IMG/VR virus record: IMGVR_UViG_2512047007_000001
Coordinates: 4,917 to 68,916 of that record
DNA length: 64,000 bases
DNA from: a virus
Reading direction: 5' to 3' (one strand)
This document shows positions 15,889 to 61,580 of this stretch, one piece after another (position 1 is the stretch's first letter; every line of letters starts with the position of its first letter). The position numbers and the translations under genes are program-made. Under the pieces are notes generated by a model. The model made no database searches, was not told where the DNA came from, and saw only the letters and a program-made list of their open reading frames with translations.

Positions 15889-15902
15889 GGCGTGTGCCTG
15901 CC

Positions 15903-16382: not shown

Positions 16383-16612
16383 AGCCCTCTCCCATCTGAT
16401 CAGTGCAAAGCCCCGACGCTAGCGACCCGGCACCCGGCCCCCGGGGCAATCCCGGCCGCACCCCCCGAACGAGGGGCGCACCGATCGGGCGTACGGCAGC
16501 ACGGGCCGGCCCACTCTGATCACCCCGAAGCGCTACGGTCGCACCGCTCATCGGGAACCGCGTCGGCCGGGGAATTCGACGCGGACCGGGCCGCTCCGGC
16601 GGTAGCTCCACA

Positions 16613-16650
16613 CGAACAGCCCCCCAACCGATCGGTTGGGGGGCTGTTCG
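16613..16650. terminator. Perfect 38-bp palindrome downstream of the GntR gene
   Basis: CGAACAGCCCCCCAACCGA|TCGGTTGGGGGGCTGTTCG. Confidence 0.7.
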
Positions 16651-16685
16651 CCTGCTCACTTCTCAGCCGCGCCTCGCCGGCCGCG

Positions 16686-34432: not shown

Positions 34433-34433
34433 C

Positions 34434-34877: not shown

Positions 34878-35602
34878 CCACCACCCCACCCGCCCCCACC
34901 CCGGCCACTCTCGTCGTCGCCGAGACGTTCGGCCCGACCGTGCAAGGCGAAGGCCCCTCCCTCGGCCGCCGCGCCTCGTTCGTTCGCCTCGGCGGCTGCA
35001 ACCTGTCCTGTACGTGGTGCGACACCCCCTACACCTGGGACGGGGACCGGTACGACCTGCGCGCCGAGCTCACCCGCACCCCCGTGGCCGACATCGCCGC
35101 CCGCGCGCTCCAGGGCGCCCCCGGCGTCGTCGTCATCACCGGCGGCGAACCCCTCCTCCACCAGCACCAGCCCGGCTGGACGACGCTCCTCGACCTCCTC
35201 ACCGCGGGCGGCGCGGAGATCGAGGTGGAGACCAACGGCACCATCGGCCCCACCCCCACCACGGTGGCCGCCGTCGCACGCTTCAACGTCTCCCCGAAGC
35301 TCCCCCACGCCGGCGACCCCGAGCGGGCCCGTATCCGCCCCGCCCAGCTCGCCGCGCTCAACGCCACCGGCCGCGCCGCGTTCAAGTTCGTGTGCCGCAC
35401 CCCCGCCGACGTCGACCAGGTAGCCACCTACACGACCGCGTGGGGCGTCCCCCCGGCCCGGGTGTGGGTCATGCCCGAAGGCACCACCCCCGCCGCCCTG
35501 AACGCCCACCTGGCCGCCATCGCAGACCCCGCCATCACGGCCGGGTTCAACCTCACTACCCGCCTCCACGTCCACGCGTGGGGCGACGAAAGGGCCCGCT
35601 GA
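34874..35602 (+). CDS. queE: 7-carboxy-7-deazaguanine synthase (radical SAM)
   Basis: TVQGEG, FVRLGGCNLSCTWCDT, ITGGEP, ETNGT, SPK. Confidence 0.96.
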   Translation: MTTTPPAPTPATLVVAETFGPTVQGEGPSLGRRASFVRLGGCNLSCTWCDTPYTWDGDRYDLRAELTRTPVADIAARALQGAPGVVVITGGEPLLHQHQPGWTTLLDLLTAGGAEIEVETNGTIGPTPTTVAAVARFNVSPKLPHAGDPERARIRPAQLAALNATGRAAFKFVCRTPADVDQVATYTTAWGVPPARVWVMPEGTTPAALNAHLAAIADPAITAGFNLTTRLHVHAWGDERAR

Positions 35603-41278: not shown

Positions 41279-41605
41279 ATGATCACAATCCCGGAACTCG
41301 TAATCCTGGCGCTCGCCGGATATCGACTCACCCAACTCGGCGTACATGACGCCATCCTCGACCCCGCCCGGGACAAGGTGTTCGACTGGCAGACCCGCCG
41401 CCCCGAGTCCAGCGCCCGGGCGTTCGTCGTCACCCTCATCTCCTGCATCTACTGCCTCGGCTGGTGGCTGACCGGCGCCGTCCTCGCCGCCTGGCTCCTG
41501 TGGCCCGACAACCGCGTGGTCCAGGTCGGCGTGCTGTGGTTCGCGGTCGCCGGCGCCGCCGCGCTCCTCAACCGCTGGGACGACTCCCGCAAGGCCGCCT
41601 CGTGA
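41279..41605 (+). CDS. DUF1360-family membrane protein
   Basis: YRLTQLGVHDAILDPAR, SCIYCLGWW. Confidence 0.8.
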   Translation: MITIPELVILALAGYRLTQLGVHDAILDPARDKVFDWQTRRPESSARAFVVTLISCIYCLGWWLTGAVLAAWLLWPDNRVVQVGVLWFAVAGAAALLNRWDDSRKAAS

Positions 41606-43761: not shown

Positions 43762-43999
43762 CCAGCCGACCGCCCCGAACGGCCGGCCCCTGGACCACAC
43801 GGCGCGGGTCGGGCACTCCACCGCCGCGCACCGCGCCCACGGCTGGTGCGCTGCCTGCCCCGGCATCGAGCCGGACACGGAGCTGGTGGCCTGGCGGGCA
43901 CGGGACAACGCCCTCCACGCCGCCGCAGATCCGGCCCAAGCACACGACCCCGACTCGTGCCCGGACCCCCGGGCGGAAGAGGTGACCCATGGCCGATGA
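43754..43999 (+). CDS. Small hypothetical protein
   Basis: WCAAC; coupled. Confidence 0.55.
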   Translation: MADQPTAPNGRPLDHTARVGHSTAAHRAHGWCAACPGIEPDTELVAWRARDNALHAAADPAQAHDPDSCPDPRAEEVTHGR

Positions 44000-46900: not shown

Positions 46901-47375
46901 GTTCGATGACACCCGGACCGTCGCCGCGGTCGTCACCACCGGCATGAACGAGCGCGGGTTGTGGTTCTCCGGCGCAGCCGCACCGTGGCTGAGCCAGTGG
47001 GACCGGACCGTCTTCACGGCGTGCCAGCCGAGCTACCACATGCGGCAGGGCGCTGACGGCCGCTGGCAGCTCCGCGCGGTCCTGTCCGTGCCCGTGCCCG
47101 GGCACTCCTCGCCGCTCCTGGCGGCCGCCGTGGAGCGCTCGAACCTCGCGCTGGCCGCGTCCGCCGCGAGCGGCATGCCCGCCCCCGCCCCCGCTCCGGC
47201 CGCTGGTGCCCCGGCCACGTCACCCGTGCCGACCCCGGCCCTGACTGCCGCGCTCGACAGCCCCGACGTCCTCGACACCCTCTTGGACGCCCTGTCCCGC
47301 CGGCAGCAGCAGCGGGCCGACGAACGACGCGCGGAGGTGGAGCGCCTGGCCGCCACCGTCTCCGCCGCCGCCTAA
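43989..47375 (+). CDS. Head morphogenesis fusion: MuF domain, 2H phosphoesterase, capsid maturation protease-like region, wHTH
   Basis: KQWRTRGDRRVRHAH...NCRC (MuF); HLT at 44976 and HVC at 45282 (2H); TGDGRVF...GA.LVAVPAF. Confidence 0.85.
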   Translation: MADEEATLQQAEEEVSRVVADVLAEVAEEFADAVSGADELVAARFSVGRIARMWASRMPRVVARLLGVAETAAHQAADSVDADLDGTWDDLPGRYEDGRDLPAGIGQYVETTEHLLRAVGDSLADVARQELAEGLEAGEDVDQLRARLLTRFRADGPQLGAGRQERTAATEASRAWNTATLEAARALSGPDRPLVKQWRTRGDRRVRHAHDEVDGQLRMLDEPFRVGGHDMDAPGDPSAPASLVVNCRCQLRVSRAEGRASSAAPTSEDAGRTASYESSAHHGATPSNAGPIVAAADGSHLMGGMIALIPTEDDAARLALDGGEAADELHLTLYFLGDQGGDWTEDQRQELADLVRSRVRDLGGPITARAFGAAHWNAGSDSPSWVWSVGGDRDAPDDAPTLVQAHALATDALESTHDRPELPTQHSPWAPHVCAAYSDDPGLLAALEDRLGPITFDRVRLAFGGDRIDIPLQLEDDPMPTEETTAAGLPTRAWSTPDGTALAYENQTTGDGRVFRPGALSWDGAGPWPLQYADEMLSGHQGAELAGAITSVGRDGDRITGSGVLYLTQRSGAEAALLLEEEAPLGVSVDLDDVDVEFVDKTLAEDEAGNLVLAASLASASLLPLEDGGWLITAQPTAEWEASAGVLSRTRQTVQLITGPGGQVNASALLNAFAGTALLPDAIVAAAGDADDPDTGVVVHSEKSGDFLVRITRARLRGATLVAVPAFAAARIVLDPLDDDEAEREASARPPLLDDVTASSEATRRRIITYVRTAPAPVGAAHVAKALGISVSTARKHLGAAVKAGDLVRLRPGLYVGATAGPGTEASASVAAAAGTVPGAPADVPASLRLHPVPDDVLTDLAASAWTAMRDADPMPAAWFREPTEAELPPGSGGVHYADGRVFGWVAQAGEPHAGYPGRNLTVESLGELDMSHFLRARFRLDDGTFVKAGAFTMNVPHSKDGAECDTASCQFDDTRTVAAVVTTGMNERGLWFSGAAAPWLSQWDRTVFTACQPSYHMRQGADGRWQLRAVLSVPVPGHSSPLLAAAVERSNLALAASAASGMPAPAPAPAAGAPATSPVPTPALTAALDSPDVLDTLLDALSRRQQQRADERRAEVERLAATVSAAA

Positions 47376-47843: not shown

Positions 47844-47883
47844 GGCTATGCTGGTGCACTAGTACCGCTGGTTATGGGCCGGG
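47844..47883 (+). promoter_or_regulatory. Late promoter plus leader motif, copy 1
   Basis: GGCTATGCT followed by GCTGGTTATGGGCCGGG. Confidence 0.7.
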
Positions 47884-47915
47884 TCATCAGGCTTCACCTC
47901 CTGGAGACCCGACCC

Positions 47916-49595
47916 ATGGCCTTCGAGCTTCCGCAGGACCTCAACCAGCTCTCCGACGGCGCTTTCCTCTCCACCCTCACGGACGAGGACCTGAGCGCGG
48001 CCACGGAGACCACCGCGCGCACCTTCGCCGCGCTGTCCGCTCAGGACGAGATCACGGACGACGCGCTCGCCCAGATGCGGGCGCTCGCCGCCGGCACCGA
48101 GGCGATCCGGTCGGAGCAGCGCTCCCGCCGTGAGGCCGCCGAGGCCGCCGTGAGCGAGATCGACCAGCTCGCCGCGCAGATCCGCGGCGACGAGCCGCAG
48201 ACCGCGCCCGCCGAGCCGGAGCAGTCCGCGGCGGAGGAGACCACCGCGGCCGCCGACCCGGCCCCCGAGCAGCCCGCCGCCCCGGCGGCCCCGGCCGCTC
48301 CGGCGGCGCCCGCGACCGCCACCGCCTCGGCCGTCGCCCGGCCCGCCCTCAACCTCAGCGCCGTGCGCCGGGTCCAGCCCCGCGTCCTGCCCGAGGCCCC
48401 GGCCCCGGGAACCACCATCACCGCGGCGGTCGACGTCCCCGGCTACACCCCCGGCGCGGCCCTGGACTTCAACGACATCACCGCCGGCATCATCTCCAGG
48501 GCGAATGCCCTGAAGACCGCGGGCGGCGGCGTCGGACAGGTCATCTCGTACCGGCACCCGTACCCGCAGGAGCTCATCGTCACCGACTCCTCGTCGGCGC
48601 CGGAGGGCACGAGCGTGGCCCTGACCGCCTCCAGCCAGAGCCGCCTGCCGGAGCGGGAGCTCGTCGCGTCGGGCGGCTGGTGCGCCCCGTCGGAGACCAT
48701 CTACGAGCTGACCGACACGGCGTGCCCCGACCTCCTGTGGGACGCACCGGAAATCCAGCTCGCCCGGGGCGGCCTGCGCTACTACATGCCGCTCTCCCTC
48801 GACGTCGCCGCCATGACGTGGGTGCACACCGAGGCCGACGACATCAGCGGTGCGGAGAAGCCCTGCTTCCGCATCCCCTGCCCGGAACCCGTCGAGGTGC
48901 GCTGCGACGCCATCGGCGTGTGCCTGGAGGCCGGCATCCTCACACAGCGCCACTTCCCCGAGCTGGTCGCCTGGTACCTGCGCAACTCGATGGTGGCGCA
49001 CGAAATCCGCATCAAGCAGCAGCTGTTCCAGCAGGCGCTCAACACCGCCACGCCCGTGGACATCCCGGCGTCGTTCGGCGCGCTCTCCAGCGTGTTCGCC
49101 GCGGTGGGTCTCCAGGCGGCCGACATGATCGAGCGCCACAGCCTGTGCGAGTCGACGGCCCTGGAGGTCGTGTTCCCGTACTGGTCGAGGCAGCTGTTCC
49201 TCGCCGACCTCGCGCGACAGAACGGCGTCAACATCTGCGACCTCGACCCCAACTGCATCCAGGACACGTTCAGCAAGCTCGGCGTCCGCGTGCAGTTCGC
49301 GCGGGGCCTCAACCCGGCCGTGCCCGACGAGATCGGCGGCCCCGACCCCGCCACCGCGTTCCCCGGCGAGGTCAAGTTCCTGATCTACCCCGCCGGCGGC
49401 CTCGTCATCGGCCGTGGCGAGGAGGTCAACCTCGGCGTCATCCACGACTCCACGAAGTTCCGCGTGAACGACTACACCGCGCTCTTCGCGGAGGAGTGCG
49501 CCGCGCTGGTCAACCGCAGCGTGGACACCCGCCTCGTCACCGTCCCGGTCTGCCCCTCCGGCGAGACCGGCGCACAGACGCTCCTCGCCTGCTGA
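47916..49595 (+). CDS. Major capsid protein with N-terminal scaffold
   Basis: Coiled-coil N-terminus; ASGGWCAPSE, RGGLRY; position. Confidence 0.85.
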   Translation: MAFELPQDLNQLSDGAFLSTLTDEDLSAATETTARTFAALSAQDEITDDALAQMRALAAGTEAIRSEQRSRREAAEAAVSEIDQLAAQIRGDEPQTAPAEPEQSAAEETTAAADPAPEQPAAPAAPAAPAAPATATASAVARPALNLSAVRRVQPRVLPEAPAPGTTITAAVDVPGYTPGAALDFNDITAGIISRANALKTAGGGVGQVISYRHPYPQELIVTDSSSAPEGTSVALTASSQSRLPERELVASGGWCAPSETIYELTDTACPDLLWDAPEIQLARGGLRYYMPLSLDVAAMTWVHTEADDISGAEKPCFRIPCPEPVEVRCDAIGVCLEAGILTQRHFPELVAWYLRNSMVAHEIRIKQQLFQQALNTATPVDIPASFGALSSVFAAVGLQAADMIERHSLCESTALEVVFPYWSRQLFLADLARQNGVNICDLDPNCIQDTFSKLGVRVQFARGLNPAVPDEIGGPDPATAFPGEVKFLIYPAGGLVIGRGEEVNLGVIHDSTKFRVNDYTALFAEECAALVNRSVDTRLVTVPVCPSGETGAQTLLAC

Positions 49596-49680: not shown

Positions 49681-50520
49681 ATGCCGTCAGACATGCGTAA
49701 GGCTGTCGAGCCCATCACCGGGACGCCGCTGCCGCACGGCATCCTCAACGCCTGTACCACCGTCGTGGACGTCGATGACGTCCACGAGCTGATGGGCGTG
49801 GAGTGGCTGGGCCTCGGCTGCTCCCCGGTCCGCCACTGGGTGGACCCCTGCCTCACCGACGAGTCGCCCGGCGAGTCGCCCGGGGAACCCGCCGTCAAGA
49901 TCTTCGACCGGCCGGAGATCGAGGCCGCCGACCCCATCACCCTGTACGCCGGTGCCGAGTGCAGCGCCCTTGGCTGGTCGTACGCCGAGGCGGTGGAGCA
50001 CGCCCGGGCCACCATGGACCTCGGCGAGCAACAGGGCCTTGAAGCCGCGTTCATGGCCTCCCACCTCTCCCAGCAGGCCGTGGACCTCACCCCGGCCGAG
50101 GGGCCGGTGTCAGTCGCTCAGGGCGTCGCCGCGCTGGAAGGCTGCCTCGCCGAGTCCTACGGCGGCGTGGGCGTCCTCCACGTTCCCGCCGGCGTCGCCG
50201 CGCTCCTCGGCTGCTGCAACATCCTCCGCGAGGACCCCGTCACGGGCGACCTGCGGACCCTGGCTGGCAACTGCGCGGTGATCGGCGCCGGGTACTCCGC
50301 GCTCAACGTCGGCCCCGGCGGGCTGCCTGCCGAGCCCGGCACGACCTGGCTCTACATCACCGGCCCCGTCCACATCCGGCGCGGCCCCCTCGACACCATC
50401 CCCGACCGCTCCGCGTCGGTGAACATCCGCACCAACGACCGCCGGGTGCTCCTGGAGCGCTCCTACGTGGTCGGCACGACGTGCACCGTGTGCGCAATCC
50501 AGGTGGTGACTTGCCCGTGA
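49681..50520 (+). CDS. Putative head decoration/completion protein
   Basis: RBS GGAGG; follows the capsid gene. Confidence 0.65.
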   Translation: MPSDMRKAVEPITGTPLPHGILNACTTVVDVDDVHELMGVEWLGLGCSPVRHWVDPCLTDESPGESPGEPAVKIFDRPEIEAADPITLYAGAECSALGWSYAEAVEHARATMDLGEQQGLEAAFMASHLSQQAVDLTPAEGPVSVAQGVAALEGCLAESYGGVGVLHVPAGVAALLGCCNILREDPVTGDLRTLAGNCAVIGAGYSALNVGPGGLPAEPGTTWLYITGPVHIRRGPLDTIPDRSASVNIRTNDRRVLLERSYVVGTTCTVCAIQVVTCP

Positions 50521-51137
50521 ATCCGCTCATCACAGTGCAGCCGTGTCCCGAGCAGCGGCAGGCACTCGCCCGGTGGGCCGTGGCTCAGGTGCCGAAGGTA
50601 CGCACCGTGGGCCCGTCCTCGTTCGGGGTGCCCCCGCACCTGTACACCGACATGCCCGAGGCGCTGCTCCGCGGCGCCCTGGTCGACGGCCACCCCTACC
50701 GGTCGCCCGACGACTACGAGGCCACCGAGCCCGCGCCGGCCGGAGCGCCGACACTGCTCGGCGTGGCCACCCCAGACGGCCTCCGGGACGCGGTGCTGGT
50801 CCCCCCGCTCCCGGAGGCTCCCCAGACGTTCGAGGAAGGGGAACTCGTCGTCCTCGCGGGCGGGGCGGACGGCCAGGAAACCTACGTCCCCCTCGGGGAC
50901 AGCAGCGGGGACACGGGCGGAGACGCCCCGGCCCCGCCCTCGCCGGGCCCCACGGCTGCACCGGCCGTGACCAGCGGGGACACCGCCGGGGACACGGGCA
51001 GGGACGCGGGGGACACGAGCGGGGATAGTGGCGCCACCGCACCCGCCAAGCCGTACCTCTGCGGCGACGGGTGCCCGCGAGCCTTCACCACCGCACGCGG
51101 CCGGGCGCGGCACCGGCGCACCGTCCACGGGAGGTAG
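50517..51137 (+). CDS. Protein with GGGGACA-encoded linker and C-terminal C2H2 zinc finger
   Basis: KPYLCGDGCPRAFTTARGRARHRRTVH. Confidence 0.65.
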   Translation: MNPLITVQPCPEQRQALARWAVAQVPKVRTVGPSSFGVPPHLYTDMPEALLRGALVDGHPYRSPDDYEATEPAPAGAPTLLGVATPDGLRDAVLVPPLPEAPQTFEEGELVVLAGGADGQETYVPLGDSSGDTGGDAPAPPSPGPTAAPAVTSGDTAGDTGRDAGDTSGDSGATAPAKPYLCGDGCPRAFTTARGRARHRRTVHGR

Positions 51138-51140
51138 CCC

Positions 51141-52055
51141 ATGCCCGTCCAGCCAGTTCCTTGCGCCCCCGGCGGCGGTGGGGGCGGCGAGCCCGGCCCG
51201 TCCTGCTGCGCCCCCTCCATCGCCTCCACCCCGCTCTGCCGGGAGGACGGCTCCACGATCCTCCTCGTGCTCCGCTCCGCGTGCGCGTGCGACGGCGCCG
51301 AGCCCGCCCCACCGGAGATCACCGGATGGCTCGACCCGGTCACCGGCGAGTTCACCGAGGGCGCGGCACCGGCCGACGCCCGGCCGTGCGGCGCGGACGA
51401 CTGCGCGTCCGTCTCTCTCCTGCGCCTGTGTGACCAGACGGAGGAGGAGTGCGTCCCCTTCCTCCGGCACCTGGTGCACGACTGCTCCGGCACGGTCACC
51501 GCGAGCACGGACACCACCCTCGACGGCGTCACGCCGTACGTGGTGGCCGGCGAGACGGGGGACTGCGACGACTGCCCGTGCGAGGACGGCAGCAAGGTCC
51601 TCCCGCTCTGCGACTACCAGCCAGACGGCACGAGCGTGCCGTTCCTGCGGCACCTCACCTACGACTGCACGACCGGGCAGGTGACGGAGGAGACCGACAC
51701 CGAGACGGACGCCACCACCCCCTACACCCCGACCGGCGACATCGGAGAGTGCGGCGAGTGCCGTCCAGCGCCGATGTGCCCCCAGCTCCTCGGCTTGTCC
51801 GGGCCCGAGACCTGGACCATGCCGGAGGGCACCGAGTCCGTCGCCGTCACCGTGGCCTGCGGCCCCGTCACCATCACCGACTGCGCCGGCAACGCGACCG
51901 TGGTCAACGAGTGCGGAACCGCCTTCTCCTGGGCCGCGCCCGCCTCCGGCGGCTGCGGTCCCGCCTCCCTCTGCACGCCCTTCACCGTGGAGCTACCCGA
52001 TGGCGCCGCGGTCTACCTCAACTTCGTGAGCCCTTGCCTGGGAGACGCCTCGTGA
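51141..52055 (+). CDS. Cys-rich repeat virion protein
   Basis: Two LCD..VPFLRHL.xDC..DT..D..TPY..G..G.C units. Confidence 0.75.
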   Translation: MPVQPVPCAPGGGGGGEPGPSCCAPSIASTPLCREDGSTILLVLRSACACDGAEPAPPEITGWLDPVTGEFTEGAAPADARPCGADDCASVSLLRLCDQTEEECVPFLRHLVHDCSGTVTASTDTTLDGVTPYVVAGETGDCDDCPCEDGSKVLPLCDYQPDGTSVPFLRHLTYDCTTGQVTEETDTETDATTPYTPTGDIGECGECRPAPMCPQLLGLSGPETWTMPEGTESVAVTVACGPVTITDCAGNATVVNECGTAFSWAAPASGGCGPASLCTPFTVELPDGAAVYLNFVSPCLGDAS

Positions 52056-52984
52056 ACTGCAACTGCTGCCCCCCTGTGATCATCAGCAGCAACGGTGGGG
52101 GGCCGCCCCAACCGCCGGCACCGCCGTGCGTCAGCCCGGGGTCAGAGACGGTCCTCACCGTGGACAGTGACGGATGCCTCGGCCTCATCACCGATCCGGC
52201 CGGCCCGGTCCGGCCAGGCCCTGACGGCCTCACCGTGTGCCTCTCGGAGCAGGCGGACAACACGCTCACGCAGGACGGGGACGGCTGCCTCTACGTCCCG
52301 ACCGCCCAGCCGGAGCCGATCGCCACCGGCTGCGGCATCCTCGGCGACGGAACCACCGGGGCACCCCTGGCCGCCGGCACTTCCGGCACCTGGGGAGCCG
52401 GGCAGCTCGCCTTCCCCTGCGACGACATCAACGGCGGCTCGATCTACTGCGACAGCCGAGGCCGGATGCGTACCGCGCCCCCGACGTATGCCCGCGGCTT
52501 CTCCCAGTTCGCGCAGGAGAGCGTGAGCGGCCCGCCGGAGGCCGTGGGCACCACCAGGACGACGCACGACGTGACGCTTACCGTCACGAACCCCTCGCCG
52601 TGCCGCACGATGATCACGTCAACCCGCGTCAGCGTCAACGGCGTCGCCTTCACTCAGACCGCCGCCAACGACTGGTCGATCGACTGGGGGTTGTCGTTCT
52701 CGACGGACGGCAGCGAGCCGCCGCCGCCCGCGGTCGGCTCTGGCCTCATGCGGCGGCGCACCGCCCCTGACCTCGCCTCGCCGGACGAGTGGGAGTTCCC
52801 CGTCATCGACGCCGTGACCAGCGCAGGCGCCTTCGGGTTCGTCGGCCCCGGCGAGACGATCAAGGTCCGCGCGGCGGTCGGGATCACCTTCCACGCGGTC
52901 AACCCGGCGGCTGGAGCGGACGGGACCCCGCCCGCCTGGCGCATCCGTGAGTTCGGCCTCTACGCCTGGGGCTTCGCGATCTGA
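52052..52984 (+). CDS. Putative virion structural protein
   Basis: Coupled; Cys-rich N-terminus, beta-rich C-terminus. Confidence 0.7.
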   Translation: MNCNCCPPVIISSNGGGPPQPPAPPCVSPGSETVLTVDSDGCLGLITDPAGPVRPGPDGLTVCLSEQADNTLTQDGDGCLYVPTAQPEPIATGCGILGDGTTGAPLAAGTSGTWGAGQLAFPCDDINGGSIYCDSRGRMRTAPPTYARGFSQFAQESVSGPPEAVGTTRTTHDVTLTVTNPSPCRTMITSTRVSVNGVAFTQTAANDWSIDWGLSFSTDGSEPPPPAVGSGLMRRRTAPDLASPDEWEFPVIDAVTSAGAFGFVGPGETIKVRAAVGITFHAVNPAAGADGTPPAWRIREFGLYAWGFAI

Positions 52985-53039
52985 CCCGCCCCGGCTCCCC
53001 TTCTTCCGTTGCTGACTCGACCCGAGAGCGAGACGACCG

Positions 53040-56000
53040 ATGCCCGTAGGCGGCAACTTCACCAACTGCAACTGCGGGCCCGAGACGTCCGCCTGTGAGA
53101 GCCCCACCGAGCCCCTGGCGACTGTCGGCCTGTGCCTGGCAGACGGCTCCCCGATCGCGGTCACGGTGGTCCGTGACTGCGCCGGAGTGGTCACCTCGGA
53201 GGGCTGGCTCGACCTCGCCACCGGCGCATGGTCAGCCGGGCCGCCCCCGGTCGGCACGGTCGCGTGTGGGGACTCCCGCTCCATCCAGGTCTCCGGCACC
53301 TTCTGCGACATCGCCCCGGACAGCGGCGACGTCCTCGGCCTGGTCCTCGTGGAGTACAGCTACGCCGCCGATGGCTCGATCGACGGCGTGCGCCTGGTCG
53401 ACGCCGTCACCGGCGAGACGTACACCCCGACCGGCACGGTGACGACCTGTCCGGCCGGGGTGGAGCAGCCGGAGCGGGACCTCACACAGCTCTGCGACAT
53501 CAACGACGACGAGTCCGGCACCGTCCAGGCGGTCCCGTTCCTGCGGGACTACCAGCGCGACGAGAACGGGCGGATCACTGGCCACAGTGACTACACGCTC
53601 GCCGGCGAGGCGTACGAGCCGACCGGCACCGTGGACGTCTGCCACCCGGCCGAGACGGAGCCGTGTGCCTCCACGGTGTCTACGCTGCGCCTCTGCGACC
53701 TCAACCCGGACGTGGCCCCGGACGAGACGGGCAAGCGGTGCGCGGTGCCGTTCCTGCGGCACCTGGTCTACGACTGCACCGGCGCCCTCACCGAGGCCCG
53801 GGACACGGCTACGGACGGCGTCACCCCGTACACGCCGGTGGAGGCCGTGGACTGCGGCACCGGCGGCGTGCCGGCCATGGTGGAAGTGCCGTGGGAAGTC
53901 GTGGACATCCAGCCGGACCCGGCGAGCGCGGTCGGCCGCGGCCTCATCTACACCCTGTCGCCGATCGACGACCCGACGACGACCGGCACGGTGACGGTCA
54001 CCACGAGCAGTAGCTACAACACGGCCTCCTGCCCGGCGACTCCGCCGGCCTACGCGTACCGCAACCCCACGCAGTACACGTTTACGCCGGACCAGGCGCT
54101 CCGGGACGCCGCAAGCTACGTGCGTTGTGACCTGGTGGACTTCGACCGCTTCGAGCCGGTCACCGGCCTGTCCCCGGCCCCGTCACGGCTCGGCGGCACC
54201 GCCTACTGGGACGGGACGACCGTCCGCCCGACCGCGAATGACGGCGTCGGCGAGATGTACTACGACGGCCCGCCTGAGCAGTGGACGTACCGCGTCGGCA
54301 ACACCGGCGGAGGCAACTCCTGTAGCTCCCTCTCCTTCGCCGCGGTGTCGCTGCGCCCGGAGGGCTGCTGCGCCCCGTGCGGCGGGAGCGGCGGCGGGGA
54401 CGGCAGCGGGCGCACCGTGCAGGAGGTATGCGTCATCGCCAACGCCGCTCCGGACGACGTGATGACGTGGACGCGGGTGATCGAGGACGGCGGCGCCACG
54501 ATCTACTACCTGGACCAGGACGGTGCCCGCTACGACGGCACCCTTCCCGCCGGGCACCAGATCGTGGCGTGTCCGGTGGAGGAGTCGGACACCTGCCAGC
54601 ACTGCGAGACCCTGACTCTGTGCGACGTCCAGCCGGACGAGTCCCCGGGGGAACCGGAGATCGCGTACGAGGCGATCCCGCTCGCCGAGCTCGGCCCGGC
54701 CGGCTCGTACGGCGACGGCAGCCCCGTCACGGGCACGCTGCCCAACGGCGTCGGCTACAGCGTGAACGTGGGCGAGTGGGGCCCCGGCCAGGGGCACTAC
54801 ACGTTTTACCCGTACGACGGCACGCAGGTGTGGTCGTTCACCGAGCCGGTCTATGTCCGGTTCGGGCTGCGCGGCCTCAACATCACGCCCACGGAGTGCT
54901 ACGTCCTCCCCGAGGGCGCGGTGGCCGAGTCCATCAGCCCCAGCCATACGTGGGACCCGGACAGCCGGTACCTGTGTGAGATCACCGGCCAGTCGAGCGC
55001 CACGGATGAATCTGTGTTCCGCCTCGGCCCGGTCACCGAACTGCCCATCGTCCCCTCGGGCAGCAACACCGGCGGCCGTGGCCCCGGCCTGATCGAGGTC
55101 GGCTTCCCCGTGGACGCGCCGGCGCCGGGCTCCTCCACCAGCTTCCTGCGCGTGGTGTGCCGGGACTGCTCCGGCGTCGTCACCTCGGTCACGGATACGG
55201 ACCTGGACGGCACGCCGTACACCCCGAGCGGGACCGTCACGGCCTGCACCAGCAGCAGCGGCGGCGGGGACCAGCCCGCGGAGCCGTGCCGGGACAGCTC
55301 CACGCTCCTGGTCTGCGACCTGCCTACCGAAGGTGTGGACGGCACGGCGACCGCGTCCGACGTGAGCGCGCAGGCCGCGGAGTATCCGTTCGACGCGGAC
55401 CCGATTCGCTGCGTCAACCCTCTGCCGGGCGGCGCAGCCAGCCTGTGGGCCGGCGGTGCCGGGAACGTCGTCTTCCCGGCGGAGACCACGGCATCAGGCA
55501 CGTGCGATGACCGGCCGCGCGGTCAGGTACTGCGCGGTATCGCCGCGGAACTCCAGGCCGATCCGCCGTCGTGCACTGACGGGACCGTCGACGTGACGGT
55601 GTCCGTGCGCGTCACCAACGACAGCCCGCACGCCGCCGCCGCCAACTACAACGGCGGCCTACGGCTCCACCGGGTCGACACCGGGGAGCGGCTGGCGCTC
55701 TCACAGAGCCTCCTTTCTACCCCGGCCAACGCCTCGCGGACGCTCACCGCCACCGCTACCGGCATCGACGCCGGGTTGCTGGAGACCGGGCAACTCGTCG
55801 TCGTCCTCGATGTGGAAACCTTCGACGGCACCAACCCGGCCGGCAACGGGAACCGGTGGACGGCCGACCAGTTCATGGCCACCTACGCCTACGGCACCGA
55901 GGGCTGCGCGAACCAGATCCTCCGCACGGTCGTCACGGACTGCGAGACCGGCGCCGTCCTGTCCGTGTCGGACACCACGATGGACGGCGAGCCGTACGAG

Positions 56001-58373
56001 GTGACGGGCGACGTCGGCCAGTGCGAGAGCACCGGAGGCGGAGCGACAGCGCCGCCGGAGATCCGGTTGGACGTGGAGACGGCGCTCCTGTGCATCCGGG
56101 ACGACGCCGGGAACATCACCGGTCAGGTCTTCGTGGAGCGCATCTACGCCGACCAGACCGGGGAGCGCATCGCGCAGCGCCTCACCGACCCCACCACCGG
56201 GGATGAGGTGGAACTCCCGGACGGCGCCGAGCTGGTCGCCTGCCAGGAGCCCGCGTGCCCGGTCGCGTTCTCCACGGAGTGCGTGGGCGCGGTCACCCGC
56301 ACGGAGGCCGGCTACGACAACACCTCCACGATCAACGGGGTGCCCGGCAAGTGCGGGTCGGTCCAGGGCCCGGGCGGGCAGTTCCCGTGCCAGCCGACCG
56401 GCGCCCTGACGATCACCTCGTGGATCGTGGACGGGGAAGAGGTCATCGGCGAGGGTGGCGGCCGGTCCTTCAACGGCGGCCCCTGTGGGCAGGGCACCAC
56501 CGCCAACCGCGGTATGCACCACAACTGGGCCCTTGCCCTCACCAACCTCGACCCGTCTGGCGCCAACTGGAGCGCCCAGGAGGCGGACGGCTGCGCCTGG
56601 TTCGTCGGCTCCACGGGCGGGACCCGCACCGTGTACGGCGCCATGACGGTGCAGGACGCGGCGGGACAGCAGTGGATTCTCGGCCCGGCGCAGGCCTGCG
56701 AAGAGGTCCAGTACACCAAGGTGTACACGCAGGAGTGCGACGGCACCGTGTCCGTCTCCTGGCTGGACGCTCAGGGCGTGGCGACGGACGCCCCGGACGG
56801 CGACCTCGTCCCGTGCGGCACGGGCTGCGGGAGCGGTGGCGGGGCCGGCCTGGACGTGGAGACGGTGGCGCTCTGCGACGTCCAGGCGGACGGCACCACC
56901 GTGCCGTTCCTGCGGCACATCACCTACGGGACCGGCGGGCAAGTCTCCGTCGTCCTGGACACCGGCCTCGACGCGTACTCCCCGTACGTCCCGAGCGGCA
57001 CCGTGGGCGTGTGCCAGCCGCGCGAGGACGGCCAGGACGTGGAACTCCTGGCCATGTGCGTCATCGACAACGCCACCGGCGGCACCGTGCAGCGCATCCT
57101 GGCGGAGGTCCGCTACGACGCGGAGACCGGCGAGCGCACTGGCGTCTCCTACGTGGACCCGAGCACCTGGGGGCCGGTCGCGCTCCCGGGCGGCACGCAC
57201 ATTGGTCTGTGCCCGGAAGCCGAGCCCGAGCCCGCCGAGGAGTGCCGGAACACGAGCACGCTCCTGCTGTGCGACGACACGGCCGGCACGCCGGAGACCG
57301 AGGCTGTGCCGCTGTCCACCCTCGCGGAGTCCCCGCCGGCGGTGAGCGGCACGCTACCGAACGGCGTCGGGTGGTCCGTGAGCGCCGGCCGGTGGGCTGA
57401 GGCCGCGGCCGGATACTCGATCGCGGTCAACCCCGGGCAGACCAACCCCGAGGGCCCGCAGGCGTGGACGTTCGATCAGCCGGTGCACGTCCGCGTCGGC
57501 ATGACCGGGCTCAACCAGGAGGAGTGCGCGCAGCTCCCGCCCGGCCTGGAGGTCGAATCCCTCAACACCGGGCACACCTGGGACCCCGTCACGCGCCGTC
57601 TGTGCGGGCTGCCCGGTGCGCCGGCGACCGCCATGACCATCCTGCGGAGCACCGCCCCGCTCACCAGCCTCGAATGGGACGCCGTCTACGACGGCGGTGC
57701 GGCGCCCGCCGCGAGCGGGGTGGGCCTGCTGGAGCTCACGACGGTGCCCGAGCCGGTGCAGTTCCTCCGGCACGTCACCGTGGACTGCGAGACGGGCGCC
57801 GTGGTGTCCGTCGCAGACTCCACCCTGGATGGCGACCCGTACACGGTCGTGGGTGAGGTCGGGCAGTGCACCAACGCCGCGCCCGCCGAGCCGGAGACCC
57901 CTCCGTGTGACGCCCAATCCGTGCTGTCCGCCTGCCGGTGGGACGACACGGACGGCGACGGCATCGCGGACACGGAGTACGTCGAGCTCCTGGCTGTCGA
58001 CTGCGACGGTGTCCTCGCCGGGATCGGCACGTACCTGCCGGACCTCTCCGAGCCGTACGAGCCCGTGAGCCCCGTGGACGGGAGCACGGCCGACCCTGGC
58101 CCGGAGCCCGCGGTGAACGTCCAGGCGCACCGGGTGCAGCTTGCGCCCGGCGGCACGTGGGACGCGGCGGACGTCGCCGCGCTCCGCTCCGTCACCCTGA
58201 CCGCGCACAGCGGCACGGGTCAGATCACCACGGCGGACGGGGTGTCCACCCTGTTCTCCGGTGAGTCGGTGACCTGGTCCGTGGACAAGGACGTGGACGC
58301 CGCTCTTGTCGGCCCGCTCACCGTCACCGCGGGCACGGGCACCGTCACCGTGACGTGGACGCGCTCCGTCTGA
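53040..58373 (+). CDS. 1777-aa Cys-rich repeat protein with inserted beta domains
   Basis: About a dozen related repeat units; paralogous inserts. Confidence 0.85.
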   Translation: MPVGGNFTNCNCGPETSACESPTEPLATVGLCLADGSPIAVTVVRDCAGVVTSEGWLDLATGAWSAGPPPVGTVACGDSRSIQVSGTFCDIAPDSGDVLGLVLVEYSYAADGSIDGVRLVDAVTGETYTPTGTVTTCPAGVEQPERDLTQLCDINDDESGTVQAVPFLRDYQRDENGRITGHSDYTLAGEAYEPTGTVDVCHPAETEPCASTVSTLRLCDLNPDVAPDETGKRCAVPFLRHLVYDCTGALTEARDTATDGVTPYTPVEAVDCGTGGVPAMVEVPWEVVDIQPDPASAVGRGLIYTLSPIDDPTTTGTVTVTTSSSYNTASCPATPPAYAYRNPTQYTFTPDQALRDAASYVRCDLVDFDRFEPVTGLSPAPSRLGGTAYWDGTTVRPTANDGVGEMYYDGPPEQWTYRVGNTGGGNSCSSLSFAAVSLRPEGCCAPCGGSGGGDGSGRTVQEVCVIANAAPDDVMTWTRVIEDGGATIYYLDQDGARYDGTLPAGHQIVACPVEESDTCQHCETLTLCDVQPDESPGEPEIAYEAIPLAELGPAGSYGDGSPVTGTLPNGVGYSVNVGEWGPGQGHYTFYPYDGTQVWSFTEPVYVRFGLRGLNITPTECYVLPEGAVAESISPSHTWDPDSRYLCEITGQSSATDESVFRLGPVTELPIVPSGSNTGGRGPGLIEVGFPVDAPAPGSSTSFLRVVCRDCSGVVTSVTDTDLDGTPYTPSGTVTACTSSSGGGDQPAEPCRDSSTLLVCDLPTEGVDGTATASDVSAQAAEYPFDADPIRCVNPLPGGAASLWAGGAGNVVFPAETTASGTCDDRPRGQVLRGIAAELQADPPSCTDGTVDVTVSVRVTNDSPHAAAANYNGGLRLHRVDTGERLALSQSLLSTPANASRTLTATATGIDAGLLETGQLVVVLDVETFDGTNPAGNGNRWTADQFMATYAYGTEGCANQILRTVVTDCETGAVLSVSDTTMDGEPYEVTGDVGQCESTGGGATAPPEIRLDVETALLCIRDDAGNITGQVFVERIYADQTGERIAQRLTDPTTGDEVELPDGAELVACQEPACPVAFSTECVGAVTRTEAGYDNTSTINGVPGKCGSVQGPGGQFPCQPTGALTITSWIVDGEEVIGEGGGRSFNGGPCGQGTTANRGMHHNWALALTNLDPSGANWSAQEADGCAWFVGSTGGTRTVYGAMTVQDAAGQQWILGPAQACEEVQYTKVYTQECDGTVSVSWLDAQGVATDAPDGDLVPCGTGCGSGGGAGLDVETVALCDVQADGTTVPFLRHITYGTGGQVSVVLDTGLDAYSPYVPSGTVGVCQPREDGQDVELLAMCVIDNATGGTVQRILAEVRYDAETGERTGVSYVDPSTWGPVALPGGTHIGLCPEAEPEPAEECRNTSTLLLCDDTAGTPETEAVPLSTLAESPPAVSGTLPNGVGWSVSAGRWAEAAAGYSIAVNPGQTNPEGPQAWTFDQPVHVRVGMTGLNQEECAQLPPGLEVESLNTGHTWDPVTRRLCGLPGAPATAMTILRSTAPLTSLEWDAVYDGGAAPAASGVGLLELTTVPEPVQFLRHVTVDCETGAVVSVADSTLDGDPYTVVGEVGQCTNAAPAEPETPPCDAQSVLSACRWDDTDGDGIADTEYVELLAVDCDGVLAGIGTYLPDLSEPYEPVSPVDGSTADPGPEPAVNVQAHRVQLAPGGTWDAADVAALRSVTLTAHSGTGQITTADGVSTLFSGESVTWSVDKDVDAALVGPLTVTAGTGTVTVTWTRSV

Positions 58374-58436
58374 CCCGCTCAAGGGCCCGCCGCTCATCGA
58401 GGGCGGCGGGCCCGCCCTGTACCTGAGGAGGTACCT

Positions 58437-58898
58437 ATGTCTGGCACCAACGGCAGCGTGGCCGCCGCGTCCAGTGACGTGGAGTACGAGGTCCTGTGCG
58501 ACGACGGAGGCCCGTTCCTCCGCCGCTACACCACGGTGGGGGGAGGCGCCCCGACCGTCACGGACACCGAGCTGGACGGCGCTACGCCGTACACGCCGGC
58601 CGGGGCCGTCACCCGGTGCGGCACTCCGGCAGCCGCGGCGCTCGTGGAGGCGACGGTGGAGAGGGTGAGCGGGGCGGGCTCGGTCACCATCGACGCCGGC
58701 GCCCGCTCCGTCACCGTCGTGGTCTACGCCGGGGCGCCCGCCGTCGCCATCGGCGGCGGCACGGCGGCGGCCCTCCCCGCCGGCACGTCCCTCACGTGGG
58801 GCGTCAACCAGGGCGGCGGGGAGGCCCTGGGGGACGCGCTGGTCTTCACCGGAGTGGCCGGGGATGACTTCCTCGTCACCAGCACCCGTGAGGTCTAG
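58437..58898 (+). CDS. Short paralog of the repeat protein (one repeat plus C-terminal domain)
   Basis: VLCDDGGPFLRRY..DTELDGATPYTPAG.V..C. Confidence 0.8.
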   Translation: MSGTNGSVAAASSDVEYEVLCDDGGPFLRRYTTVGGGAPTVTDTELDGATPYTPAGAVTRCGTPAAAALVEATVERVSGAGSVTIDAGARSVTVVVYAGAPAVAIGGGTAAALPAGTSLTWGVNQGGGEALGDALVFTGVAGDDFLVTSTREV

Positions 58899-59213
58899 GT
58901 GGCAGAAGGAACGGACGGCGCGTACGCCGCGCCCGGGCCTCGGGTGGAGCGTGCCCGGGGTGTGACGGACAGCGCGGGGAACGTCACCTTCGCGTGGCCC
59001 GTCGGCGCGTTCACCGCTCCACCCGTCGTCACCATCGGCGTGCAGGCCGGGGCCGGATTCCGGTCGCACGCCATCACGGCATCCTCGGCGACGGCCACCA
59101 CGGTGAATGTGCAGGTGTCCGCCGGTGTGACGTTGCTGGGTATCGGTGTGCTCGCCGTAGGCGCGGCGGCGGCCGGCGTCACGGTCCACGCTCAGGCGGT
59201 CGCCGCGCCCTGA
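58899..59213 (+). CDS. Small beta-rich fibre-tip-like protein
   Basis: VTFAWPVGAFTAPPVVT. Confidence 0.6.
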   Translation: MAEGTDGAYAAPGPRVERARGVTDSAGNVTFAWPVGAFTAPPVVTIGVQAGAGFRSHAITASSATATTVNVQVSAGVTLLGIGVLAVGAAAAGVTVHAQAVAAP

Positions 59214-59359: not shown

Positions 59360-60061
59360 GTGCCAGCACCGCTCATTTCCAATGCCGCCACGGTGCGCGT
59401 CACGCGCGTGGACGGCTGTGGTCGCCCTGTCTGCGGCGAGGACTCCTCGTTCGTCACCGACTGCTTCGCCTCCGTCTCCATGGCGGCGAACATCGAGGAG
59501 GGCGAGGACATCACCTTCACCGCCGCCAACGGCCGTCAGTGCGGGTTCAAGCGAGGCTGCCCCACCCTCAACGGCTACGACCTCACGTTCGGGTTCTTCG
59601 AGGCGTCGCCGGAGCTCATCGAGATCATGACCGGCAGCCCCGTGTACTTCGACTACGACGGCCGCCCGATCGGTTTCGATTCGTGTTCGATTCCCTGTAA
59701 CTCCGGTTTCGCGCTGGAGGTGTGGACGGACGTGCTCGGCGCGGACGTCTGCGAGGACGAGGCCGCCGAGGGCGCGTGGGTCTACTTCCTCCTCCCGTGG
59801 GTCACCAACGGCATCCTCGGGGACGTCGAACTCGCCAACGAGGCCGTGAACCTGGAGCTGACTGGCGCGACCCGCGCGGGCGGCAAGTGGGGCACCGGCC
59901 CGTACGACGTCCAGGCCATCGACGCCGGCGGCACGCCCGGCCCGATGCTCGCCCCGCTCGGCTCCACCTGCCACCGGCGCATGTTCATCACCTCCATCGC
60001 CCCGCCGGAGACCAGCAACACCTACATCCCGGTGGCCGGCGACTTCTGCGTGGCGTCCTGA
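59360..60061 (+). CDS. Major tail (tube) protein
   Basis: RVTRVDGCG, GFALEVWT, YFLLPW; RBS GGAGG. Confidence 0.8.
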   Translation: MPAPLISNAATVRVTRVDGCGRPVCGEDSSFVTDCFASVSMAANIEEGEDITFTAANGRQCGFKRGCPTLNGYDLTFGFFEASPELIEIMTGSPVYFDYDGRPIGFDSCSIPCNSGFALEVWTDVLGADVCEDEAAEGAWVYFLLPWVTNGILGDVELANEAVNLELTGATRAGGKWGTGPYDVQAIDAGGTPGPMLAPLGSTCHRRMFITSIAPPETSNTYIPVAGDFCVAS

Positions 60062-60063
60062 CC

Positions 60064-60765
60064 ATGGCGCTGGACATCGTGGTGCCGGTGCGGGAGGGCG
60101 TCGTCCACGAGCAACTGCGCTACGCGCTCCGCTCGTGGGCGGCGACCCTCCCGCACCGGCGGGTGTGGCTGGTCGGCGCCCGGCCGTCGTGGGCGACCAA
60201 CGTTGAGCACATCCGCACCCGCCAGGGCGGCACCAAGTACCGCAACACGACGGTGGCCATGGAGGCGGTGTGCCTTCACCCGGAGATCAGCGACCCGTTC
60301 ATCTACTGCAACGATGACTTCTTCGTCCTCCGTCGCCTGGCCGCGGTGCCCGTGTTCCACCGGGGGCCGGTGGCGGAGGTGGAGGCGTACTACGCCACCC
60401 GAGGCAACGGCCGGTACCTGCGCGGCCTGCGGGAGACGCGGGATCTCCTGGTCGAGCTCGGCCACCCCGACCCGCTGTCGTACGAGCTGCACGTCCCCCT
60501 CCCCGTCAACAAGCGCGGGATGCTCGCCGCGCTGGAGACCGGCCGTCACCTCGACGTCCTCCACAAGCGATCGCTGTACGGGAACCTCGCCGGGATCGGC
60601 GGGGAGCGGATGGCGGACGTGAAGGTGATCAACCGGGCGCCAGGGTTCGACACGGCCAGCGGGTTCCTGTCGACCATGCCGGACAGCTTCACCCGGGGCG
60701 CCGTCGGCGGGTACCTGCGGCAAGCGTTCTTCAGGCCGTCCCGGTACGAGCGGGGGCGGCGATGA
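60064..60765 (+). CDS. Stealth-family hexose-1-phosphate transferase-like protein
   Basis: DIVVP, EQLRYALRS, RVWLVG, FIYCNDDFFV, YELHVPLP. Confidence 0.75.
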   Translation: MALDIVVPVREGVVHEQLRYALRSWAATLPHRRVWLVGARPSWATNVEHIRTRQGGTKYRNTTVAMEAVCLHPEISDPFIYCNDDFFVLRRLAAVPVFHRGPVAEVEAYYATRGNGRYLRGLRETRDLLVELGHPDPLSYELHVPLPVNKRGMLAALETGRHLDVLHKRSLYGNLAGIGGERMADVKVINRAPGFDTASGFLSTMPDSFTRGAVGGYLRQAFFRPSRYERGRR

Positions 60766-61580
60766 GCCTGCGCGTCGGGCCCTGCGAGCCGTGGCCCACG
60801 GTGCTCTGCTGCGACACCGACGAGTACCCGCCGGAGGAGGTCGAGCGGTGGACCCGCGTCGCCTCCACCATCCTCTTCCACCTCACGGGGATGCGGTACG
60901 GGCCGTGCCCAGTGACCGTACGGCCGTGCTCCCGCTCGTGCCTCGACGGCGGCGCCCCGCTCTCGTTCCAGGCGATGCCGGGGGCGTCCACGGGCGGGTG
61001 GGTGCCGTACATCGACGGCGCCGGTATCTGGCGGAACGCCTCACTGTGCGGCTGCAAGTCGTCGTGCTCCTGCGGGGAGCTGTCCGAGATCTACCTACCC
61101 GGCCCGGTCTACGACGTCGTGGAGGTCAACGAGAACGGCCAGGTCCTCGCGCCCGGCCTGGAGTACCGGCTCGACGCCCCGGGGCGGCTGGTGCGGCTCG
61201 GCGGCGCCCGCTGGCCGACGTGTCAGGAGATGGCGGAGCCCGAGGGCGCGCCGGGCACGCTCACGGTCACCTACCGGTGGGGCCTGGAGCTGGACGACGC
61301 CGCGGTGGCCGCCGTCTCCGAACTCACCTGCCACCTCCTCCGCGGCTGCGGCGCCGGCGGCGGGTCGTGCGGCTGCAAGGCCAACCCCCGCGCCACCCGC
61401 GTCTCCCGGCAAGGCGTCGAGATCGAGCGGCAGGACGTGACGCTCATGTACACCGAGGGCCTGACCGGTCTCCCCGTCGCGGACGCCTGGATCAAGGCCG
61501 TCAACCCCTACGGGCTCCGCTCCCCGGGCCGGGTCTACTCCCCGGACTACCAGCGCCCCCGCTTCACCGTCTGGCCGTAG
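60762..61580 (+). CDS. Head-tail adaptor
   Basis: ASTILFHLTG, AVSELTC, VSRQGV, GLPVADAWI..VNP. Confidence 0.75.
   Translation: MSLRVGPCEPWPTVLCCDTDEYPPEEVERWTRVASTILFHLTGMRYGPCPVTVRPCSRSCLDGGAPLSFQAMPGASTGGWVPYIDGAGIWRNASLCGCKSSCSCGELSEIYLPGPVYDVVEVNENGQVLAPGLEYRLDAPGRLVRLGGARWPTCQEMAEPEGAPGTLTVTYRWGLELDDAAVAAVSELTCHLLRGCGAGGGSCGCKANPRATRVSRQGVEIERQDVTLMYTEGLTGLPVADAWIKAVNPYGLRSPGRVYSPDYQRPRFTVWP

Follow-up and report, generated by a model that had tools for sequence, protein, structure and literature searches.

Which role do the large cysteine-rich proteins play that are encoded, in the IMG/VR virus record IMGVR_UViG_2512047007_000001, between the capsid and tail tube genes? This locus was examined in a window of 64,000 nucleotides (nt), i.e. 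positions 4,917 to 68,916 of this 78-kb record (73% G+C), where three genes, termed P0002, P0001 and P0003, encode proteins built on one repeated unit and form, together with their immediate neighbours, a module that is entirely unannotated. The nearest isolated phages are Streptomyces siphoviruses, and the adsorption of Streptomyces phages is poorly understood. Our preferred answer, to which we give about even chances, is that the block at 50495-59058 constitutes a dispensable, recombining set of glycan-binding adhesin fibres located at the virion surface and aiding adsorption.

The initial annotation had noted a cysteine-rich unit shared by the three genes and present about a dozen times in the largest protein. 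Both observations were confirmed: units of about 55 amino acids (aa) were found in register 16 times, with 12 copies in P0001, three in P0002 and one in P0003. A profile built from these 16 units detected nine whole units in P0001 and three C-terminal unit parts (the C-parts of units 6, 7 and 11 in table 1), with a long gap ahead of each; such matches are circular where the window's own proteins are concerned. Independently of this profile, P0002 searched against its own genome matches P0001 twice (E 7.9e-16 and 8.0e-14) and P0003 (E 3.8e-9). The family phrog_18824 (PHROGs v4, function unknown) matches all three proteins, with E 0 and 1239 bits for P0001, E 1.7e-45 for P0002 and E 4.6e-14 for P0003.

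The three gaps correspond to split units, in which 157-189 residues separate the first strand (xLxLCD) from the FLR strand. Three inserts lodged in the loop between LCD and FLR had been predicted from the sequence, and the boundaries obtained here agree with this prediction to within about 20 nt. The suspected paralogy of the first and third inserts was also recovered, since B1 and B2 are 37.7% identical over 167 aa (E 1.4e-24). Searches of every sub-domain against Pfam at E ≤ 1, including the inserts and the inter-unit domains C and D, returned noise and no family match, and domain D gave no usable match in the Atlas.

This architecture is a property of the whole family. The profile was applied to 302 non-redundant relatives, gathered from database matches and from the open reading frames (ORFs) of 68 loci, and yielded 2385 unit hits, of which 1786 were whole and 597 devoid of the first strand. 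A gap of at least 100 aa precedes 594 of these 597 incomplete hits, and an LCD-type first strand directly follows the previous unit in 483 of the 594. The break always falls at profile positions 8-16, and about one-quarter of all units of the relatives carry an insert in this same loop. Across 1506 whole units, two cysteines are nearly invariant (Cys6, 100%; Cys54, 99%), followed by Gly29 (97%), Gly49 (85%) and Pro47 (78%), with a third cysteine at position 27 in 31% of them. The units of the window display the features that define the family, namely a length of about 55 aa, Cys at positions 6 and 54, Gly at position 29 and a tandem arrangement.

The family is large and without annotation. A word-indexed search retrieved 238 proteins of 977-3110 aa from Streptomyces, Kitasatospora, Nonomuraea, Microtetraspora and Streptosporangium; all named ones are called ‘hypothetical protein’ and all are devoid of Pfam domains. 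When 1.84 billion cluster representatives (50% identity) were searched exhaustively with a profile, 874 clusters matched at E ≤ 1e-3, 549 at E ≤ 1e-10 and 289 at E ≤ 1e-30. Family members reside in prophages of at least six actinomycete genera, and no match was obtained to Pfam, to the PDB or to a named PHROG. The members of phrog_18824, i.e. Xkcd426 gp17 and gp18, Mischief19 gp18 and a Saccharomonospora phage PIS 136 protein, are direct sequence relatives (33-49% identity by tblastn) that have been neither annotated nor studied; compared with them, the version in the window is longer and has another set of inserts. The top matches in BFVD (A0A125RNU7, A0A125RNU6 and I4AZD5) have the same lengths as these Xkcd426, Mischief19 and PIS 136 proteins.

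All three unit proteins of the window end in a further domain, T, which lies at the extreme C-terminus in all relatives as well. A likeness between the C-termini of P0001 and P0003 had been reported initially; it is not significant by pairwise BLASTP (E 0.15) but real by profile. Indeed, a profile built from the C-termini of 116 other large proteins matches residues 56-151 of P0003 (22.4 bits, E 6.7e-9) and, more weakly, P0002 (9.6 bits, E 6.3e-5). Counted over 73 locus entries, duplicates included, T-bearing ORFs number three in 51 entries, two in 17 and one in five, and never more than three. In a midpoint-rooted tree of T, the small proteins of P0002 type form their own clade (15 sequences, support 1.0), the P0001-type T groups with the first large protein of other loci (68 sequences) and the P0003-type T with the second large protein (81 sequences). 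At one locus, from an IMG/VR relative (L007, 11423-17566), the large unit gene is spread over overlapping frames (11423-14218, 13857-14852 and 14485-16998), which may reflect frameshifts or assembly errors.

How an insert is accommodated was examined on two AlphaFold2 models. The first covers residues 515-1000 of P0001, including two split units (94-row alignment, mean predicted local distance difference test score (pLDDT) of 88.6, predicted template modelling score (pTM) of 0.54), and the second the whole of P0002 (93 rows, mean pLDDT of 89.2). Row placement was correct for 93 of the 95 rows of the two-unit piece and for all rows of P0002; longer pieces of P0001 (residues 1-760 and 750-1777) were dropped, as MAFFT had put 34 of 114 and 73 of 118 fragment rows, respectively, on wrong units. 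Each unit is predicted to be a four-strand beta meander. Where a unit is intact, a turn of four residues joins beta1 and beta2 into a hairpin (P0002 residues 90-99 with 104-113, and 150-159 with 165-174). Where it is split, these two strands (model residues 7-16 and 185-194, and 237-247 and 444-453) lie on either side of an all-beta domain; the insert therefore replaces the turn of the beta1-beta2 hairpin.

The models were compared with 48,161 PDB representatives. Insert A (model residues 250-440) is a jelly roll whose best matches are the carbohydrate-binding module (CBM) CBM61 2xom (Z 8.4, root mean square deviation (rmsd) 3.3, 125 residues aligned) and a CBM-like cyclase (Z 8.4), followed by the TNF-like C-domain of Pgp3 (Z 8.3), other CBMs, TNF-family ligands and lectins. 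Among phage proteins, it resembles CBM2 of the evolved Dit of phage J-1 (5ly8; Z 8.0, rmsd 4.0, 156 aligned) and the CBD of the cyanophage A-1(L) short tail fibre (Z 7.8). Insert B1 (model residues 25-178) is nearest to the N-domain of the Sgo0707 adhesin (Z 8.0) and to CBM22, CBM29 and DUF4465 (Z about 7-7.9). Foldseek against the PDB returned weak multi-domain matches only; in BFVD, the insert model retrieved a family member first and then mostly minor tail, CBM-cenC, host-specificity and tail-fibre proteins, at low template modelling (TM) scores (0.13-0.24). The inserts have in the models the beta-sandwich or jelly-roll fold expected of CBMs, at middling Z, and belong by sequence to no CBM family (Pfam at E ≤ 1 and PDB profile search); profiles of both folding alignments found nothing below E 0.7 among PDB sequences. 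As best Z values of 7-8 are frequent for models lacking a true relative, the inserts are taken here as CBM/TNF-like jelly rolls and nothing more. T (P0002 residues 210-303, sandwich at 212-298), which fills the PDB match list of the P0002 model, is predicted to be a small eight-strand jelly roll, with matches to cupins (Z up to 8.1), Ena1B (7a02, 7.3), XepA and YomS (7.0 and 6.9) and the PM2 spike (6.3).

The modularity supposed initially is borne out by the relatives, which vary in the number of units, in which units carry an insert and in the family of the insert. Since insert content differs widely between relatives, inserts are not invariant among homologues and modularity stands. The extra domains fall into about 12 families, A accounting for 209 segments, B for 98, C for 53 and D for 50, the others being absent from P0001. 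A comparison of 122 architectures found a different one in almost every protein; lengths range from 153 to more than 2600 aa, with up to 17 units per chain.

Diversification by cassette insertion, as first proposed, holds with regard to this modular variation, but not as simple insertion: block replacement at an inter-unit linker and exchange of the whole 8.5-kb module were found instead. Replacement is illustrated by P0005, a protein from a Streptomyces genome. It barely departs from P0001 until about residue 1399, in the linker that follows unit 10; beyond this point, identity is about 60% and an unsplit unit takes the place of unit 11 and insert B2 of P0001. Exchange of the module is seen at locus L021, whose DNA is 94.4% identical up to 50495 and 92.6-94.4% identical from 59058 onward, with only patches of 68-74% identity in between and unit genes of seven, six and one units versus three, 12 and one in the window. 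Identity drops at 50495 and returns at 59058, and the exchanged block therefore extends from the start of the p30321 gene to the middle of the x58899 gene. No preference of recombination breakpoints for units or linkers is demonstrable with just four high-identity segments.

The module is also absent from viable relatives. Streptomyces phage TurkishDelight has a capsid 87% identical to that of the window, and capsids of cluster BG/Woodruffvirus phages (YDN12, TP1604, Xkcd426, Mischief19 and others) are 56-58% identical; BG phages are siphoviruses with prolate heads (PMC5511901). A tblastn search with P0001 found a match in only three of 50,697 phage records, and the matches listed for the capsid include 13 distinct Streptomyces phages, two of which are among these three records. 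In YDN12, the major tail protein comes directly after gp16 (p30321-like), and neither units nor T nor x58899 gave a match. Xkcd426 and Mischief19 carry unit genes in that slot, and the former was described as having a >6-kb insertion of five orphan genes at the place where P0001 matches (PMC5511901). In TurkishDelight, the p30321 homologue and the major tail protein are separated by gp20, a 678-aa glycosyltransferase (L080, 16432-18468) that occupies the slot, and the first 28.7 kb contain neither unit nor T matches. This slot looks like a hot spot for cargo remodelling the virion surface, and the presence of a glycosyltransferase there in a close relative points to a hot spot of general nature.

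These observations fit a module that would be an accessory, exchangeable part of the late structural operon and would encode extra fibres of the virion surface, made of chains of four-strand units each bracketed by the near-invariant Cys pair. Judging from the conservation of its two residues, this pair probably acts as a staple, in the simplest case a disulfide that would arise after the particle has left the cell. In the first hairpin, the tip would accept a whole jelly roll of 150-200 aa whose two ends meet, and as the hairpin tolerates a whole domain, one chain could display several CBM-like domains; in P0001, these would be two B-type inserts and one A-type insert, in addition to the inter-unit domains C and D. 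T, the one constant globular part, may dock the protein to the particle or to its paralogues. Conserved units and linkers would offer homology for recombination, by which units, inserts and whole genes could be reshuffled between phages, retuning the host-surface polymers to which the particle sticks. The module would aid adsorption in the manner of T4 Hoc and of the CBM decorations on lactococcal necks and tails, and would not be needed for an infectious particle.

Other roles have to be weighed against this one. The unit proteins might be tail-associated side fibres, or true primary receptor-binding proteins (RBPs) that set the host range, their genes lying simply upstream of the tail genes. 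Such a role would account for a hypervariable module that is exchanged as a block like RBP loci and directly abuts the major tail protein gene, for the minor tail, host-specificity and tail-fibre proteins prevailing among the BFVD look-alikes of the insert model and for the fibre-like Atlas look-alikes of P0124; however, YDN12 and TurkishDelight are viable without the module, a full tail-tip set is encoded downstream (phrog_837, the collagen-like minor tail protein and phrog_863/6202) and the structural look-alikes have low TM scores, so that we regard this alternative as unlikely, if worth keeping in mind. Dispensability for particle formation would also suit proteins that never enter the particle but are produced late, set free by lysis and then serve as adhesins or decoys that bind wall polymers, debris or competing cells; Pfam and PDB profile searches recognised no virion-docking domain, and x58899 has a hydrophobic C-terminal stretch. 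This seems quite improbable given that the module lies inside the head-to-tail morphogenesis operon in every locus reaching both flanks, that stop and start codons overlap or abut and that very large multi-domain proteins at such a position are usually structural in other phages.

Two further explanations concern the particle itself or the chemistry of the units. That the proteins are a capsid cement, stabilizing a prolate head without any binding role, is very improbable: cement is usually small and conserved, whereas these proteins are mosaic and extremely variable in length, and relatives with 57-87% identical capsids manage without the module, even though the genes lie 3' of the capsid gene, the invariant cysteines could cross-link and the jelly roll of T resembles certain decoration or spike bases. 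As for the cysteines, their association with conserved D-T and T-P-Y positions might mean that enzymes cross-link the Cys/Thr-rich units, by thioethers (lanthionine-type) or otherwise, in place of disulfides. Among the 50 window ORFs scanned, Pfam revealed no LanC, LanM or dehydratase-type family, which led us to drop lanthipeptide-type cross-linking, and the sole radical-SAM gene pairs with that of a 6-pyruvoyl-tetrahydropterin synthase (PTPS, QueD-type) family protein, an arrangement that fits deazaguanine synthesis; enzymatic cross-linking of any such kind is barely credible.

Several points nevertheless weigh against glycan-binding adhesin fibres. The position of the module ties its proteins to the head no more than to the neck or tail, and T, which resembles cupins, Ena, XepA/YomS and the PM2 spike about equally, does not indicate an attachment site. 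Phage proteins fold in a reducing cytoplasm, and the disulfides would therefore have to form after lysis. The adhesin role suggested in the initial annotation draws some support from the CBM-like jelly rolls and from the tail, CBM-cenC and host-specificity look-alikes, but this support is weak, a Z of about 8 being generic: best values of 7-8 are common for models that have no true relative, and ‘CBM-like’ denotes a fold, not a function. Moreover, full-text searches of the literature (main texts) found no description of the family and no proteomic, microscopy or binding data for any member, and Xkcd426 and Mischief19 were described as ordinary prolate-head siphoviruses with no fibres reported (PMC5511901).

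Adhesin fibres of this kind would have partial precedents. Accessory adhesion of lactococcal, streptococcal and Lactobacillus siphophages is attributed to CBMs on the neck passage structure (NPS), on the TpeX tail-tube extension and in loops of ‘evolved’ Dit and Tal, and CBM ‘bricks’ on siphophage virions are already established for lactococcal phages (PMC6669499). For the scaffold and the family, no earlier description was found. By analogy, the module would share with these systems interchangeable jelly-roll modules on virion proteins, in some cases set into a carrier loop, as well as dispensability for assembly and variability between close phages. It differs in its carrier, which consists of tandem Cys-bracketed four-strand units and not of Dit, Tal, tail tube or NPS, in the possibility of several inserts per chain, always in the same hairpin, and in the location of the genes between head and tail-tube genes. 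No sequence relation to these carriers was detected, as neither PHROGs nor Pfam matched P0001-P0003 or P0124 to Dit, Tal or NPS.

T4 Hoc and the phi29 head fibre gp8.5 are non-essential surface proteins in which a string of small beta domains projects outward from a terminal docking domain; the phi29 head fibre gene lies next to the capsid gene, and weak surface adhesion has been proposed for such proteins. The module proteins seem analogous in their gene position near the capsid gene and in their chain of small beta domains, but are far larger, more mosaic and endowed with nested domains. P0001-P0003 gave no Ig-type Pfam match, their units being four-stranded, unlike the tandem Ig-like domains of Hoc, and no profile match to Phage_head_fibr (PF11133) was found in P0001-P0003 or P0124. 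T might recall, by its small jelly roll and the Cys-rich terminal segments of the proteins, the subunits of the Bacillus endospore appendage (Ena; 7a02, 9i0y and 8pdz), which form disulfide-linked jelly-roll pili: Z is 7.3 for Ena1B (rmsd 3.5, 83 aligned), 7.2 for Ena2A and 6.6 for Ena3A, with cupins at the same values or higher, and no sequence match between T and Ena/DUF3992 was found. Lastly, capsid glycosylation has been suggested in a mycobacteriophage (PMC11256854). Glycosylation cassettes of actinobacteriophages, composed of glycosyltransferase genes within the structural operon, could be functional analogues, as the TurkishDelight glycosyltransferase, located in the same slot, would alter the surface chemistry of the particle and would not be required for assembly; they differ in being enzymes that modify virion proteins, versus a large structural or adhesive set, and are not homologous to it.

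If the module does encode adhesin fibres, soil phages would possess a second, fast-evolving layer of host recognition, and the large orphan insertion noted in Xkcd426 in 2017 would be explained. The scaffold would also represent a new principle of protein architecture and a possible display framework, in which a small stapled unit bears a domain of 150-200 aa in one hairpin. A bolder and doubtful extension is that the unit array is an undescribed Cys-stapled ‘loop-display’ scaffold whose repeats serve as recombination joints for the combinatorial assembly of multivalent lectin fibres, the paralogues perhaps being joined through T or the N-terminal CxC into a hetero-oligomeric, disulfide-locked appendage of the prolate head with arms of very different length. 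It draws on the observation that no locus entry has more than three T-bearing paralogues, each with its T in its own clade.

Table 1. Components of the module, sub-domains of P0001 and neighbouring late genes. Positions refer to the window; residues refer to the encoded protein.
Feature	Position	Strand	Details
p30321	50481..51137	+	218 aa; first gene inside the variable block; phrog_30321, E 2.9e-122
P0002, minimal scaffold protein	51141..52055	+	304 aa, 25 Cys; Cys-rich N-terminus, three units, C-terminal T
P0002, parts			units at residues 30-84, 92-143 and 153-205; T at 206-304 (unit alignment and profile)
P0124	52052..52984	+	310 aa; no units; real frame by plot of G+C at third codon positions (GC3) and translation
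P0001	53040..58373	+	1777 aa, 64 Cys; 12 units, three loop inserts, two inter-unit domains, C-terminal T
Units 1-4 of P0001	53121..53858	+	residues 28-77, 86-138, 148-202 and 214-273; profile E 1.6e-10 to 1.3e-20
Inter-unit domain C	53859..54416	+	residues 274-459; clusters with 52 other segments of relatives
Unit 5	54417..54575	+	residues 460-512; profile E 6.7e-11
Unit 6, split by insert B1	54606..55250	+	N-part 523-537, C-part 695-737; profile
Insert B1	54651-55121	+	residues ~538-694
Unit 7, split by insert A	55296..56027	+	C-part 955-996, E 2.3e-13; N-part boundary from unit alignment
Insert A	55335-55901	+	residues ~766-954
Unit 8	56076..56246	+	residues 1013-1069; profile E 8.2e-15
Inter-unit domain D, Cys-rich	56247..56858	+	residues 1070-1273; clusters with 49 other segments
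Units 9 and 10	56859..57215	+	residues 1274-1326 and 1335-1392; profile
Unit 11, split by insert B2	57252..57872	+	C-part 1571-1611, E 3.7e-13; N-part boundary from unit alignment
Insert B2	57285-57749	+	residues ~1416-1570; paralogue of B1
Unit 12	57918..58076	+	residues 1627-1679; profile E 3.5e-14
T domain of P0001	58077..58370	+	residues 1680-1777; 149 bits to the independent profile of 116 C-termini
P0003	58437..58898	+	153 aa, two Cys; one unit (residues 17-62) and T (63-153)
x58899	58899..59213	+	104 aa; last module gene; hydrophobic Gly/Ala-rich C-terminus
Portal-like gene	41464-43347		late operon
MuF/protease-type fusion	43989-47375		late operon
Major head protein gene	47874-49595		phrog_777
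p779 gene	49681-50520
Major tail protein gene	59360-60061		phrog_792
phrog_7999 protein gene	59722-60765		start probably near 60075; between major tail protein and head-tail adaptor genes
Head-tail adaptor gene	60762-61580

Domains C and D, gene P0124 and the two flanking genes that co-vary with the module (50481-51137 and 58899-59213) had gone unnoticed in the initial annotation. Residues 16-90 of p30321 match phrog_17728, and its N-terminal 80 aa or so resemble gp16 of the module-free relatives (29% match to the YDN12 gp16 region); p30321 is only 47% identical in L021, where flanking genes are 93-99% identical. The GTG start of P0124 overlaps the stop of P0002 (GTGA), and the gene had escaped notice because its reading frame continues an alternative frame that extends over P0002. 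Neither Pfam nor PHROGs gave a match for P0124, and the same searches with ten P0124-like proteins of other loci gave nothing informative; residues 60-196 of P0124 are found again, at many related loci, in genes that separate x58899 from the tail gene. Its look-alikes in the Atlas are clusters of collar/adenovirus-type fibre, C1q and phi29 head-fibre proteins, at TM scores of merely 0.20-0.39 (0.20 for the phi29 head fibre), a lead towards a possible short fibre with a knob.

A gene with one unit plus T, like P0003, was found in 45 of the 60 non-duplicate loci reaching the tail gene. Among these 60 loci, 44 have both this gene and x58899, seven have neither, eight have x58899 alone and one has the one-unit gene alone; because related loci share both genes by descent, this co-occurrence is no independent evidence of interaction. 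x58899 is present in Xkcd426 and Mischief19, absent from YDN12 and was seen only with the module; it ends in a stretch of about 20 Gly/Ala/Val/Leu residues, perhaps a strand or a membrane segment. Clusters of a few cysteines (CC, CxC and CxCC) mark the starts of P0002, P0001 and P0124 (51141-51240, 53040-53140 and 52052-52130), including the NCNCC motif of P0124, which is similar to an NCNC motif close to the P0001 start, and the last residues of p30321 are CGDGC (51100-51137). Such clusters could be inter-chain disulfide or metal sites; residues 1-16 of P0002 have pLDDT values below 50.

The position of the unit genes between capsid and tail tube genes, already pointed out initially, was verified by PHROG matches (phrog_777 upstream and phrog_792 downstream). 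In every compared locus that reaches both capsid and tail-protein homologues, as judged by inspection, the unit genes lie between these two, 3' of the p779 and p30321 homologues. Further downstream, the genome encodes a tape measure protein (1109 aa), phrog_838, the minor tail protein phrog_837, a collagen-like minor tail protein and the tail-fibre protein phrog_863/6202, so that tail-tip genes are separate from the module.

Other features of the late operon and of the window deserve mention. The major tail protein gene lies 5' of the head-tail adaptor gene (59360-61580), an unusual order common to BG phages and TurkishDelight. The MuF-type head protein has an RNA-ligase/2H-type region (phrog_2659) at residues 277-473 and helix-turn-helix-like matches at residues 761-816. 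The phrog_7999 gene has a sub-threshold Pfam match to Stealth CR2 (E 2.9e-5, 24.6 bits for a cut-off of 39.4); Stealth proteins being sugar-phosphate transferases, this match might be a pointer to virion glycosylation. The PTPS (QueD-type) and radical-SAM (QueE-type) genes are adjacent at 34266-35602 and suggest a 7-deazaguanine modification of the phage DNA. Finally, an ORF at 29368-30312 matches PP2C phosphatases (E 7.7e-7).

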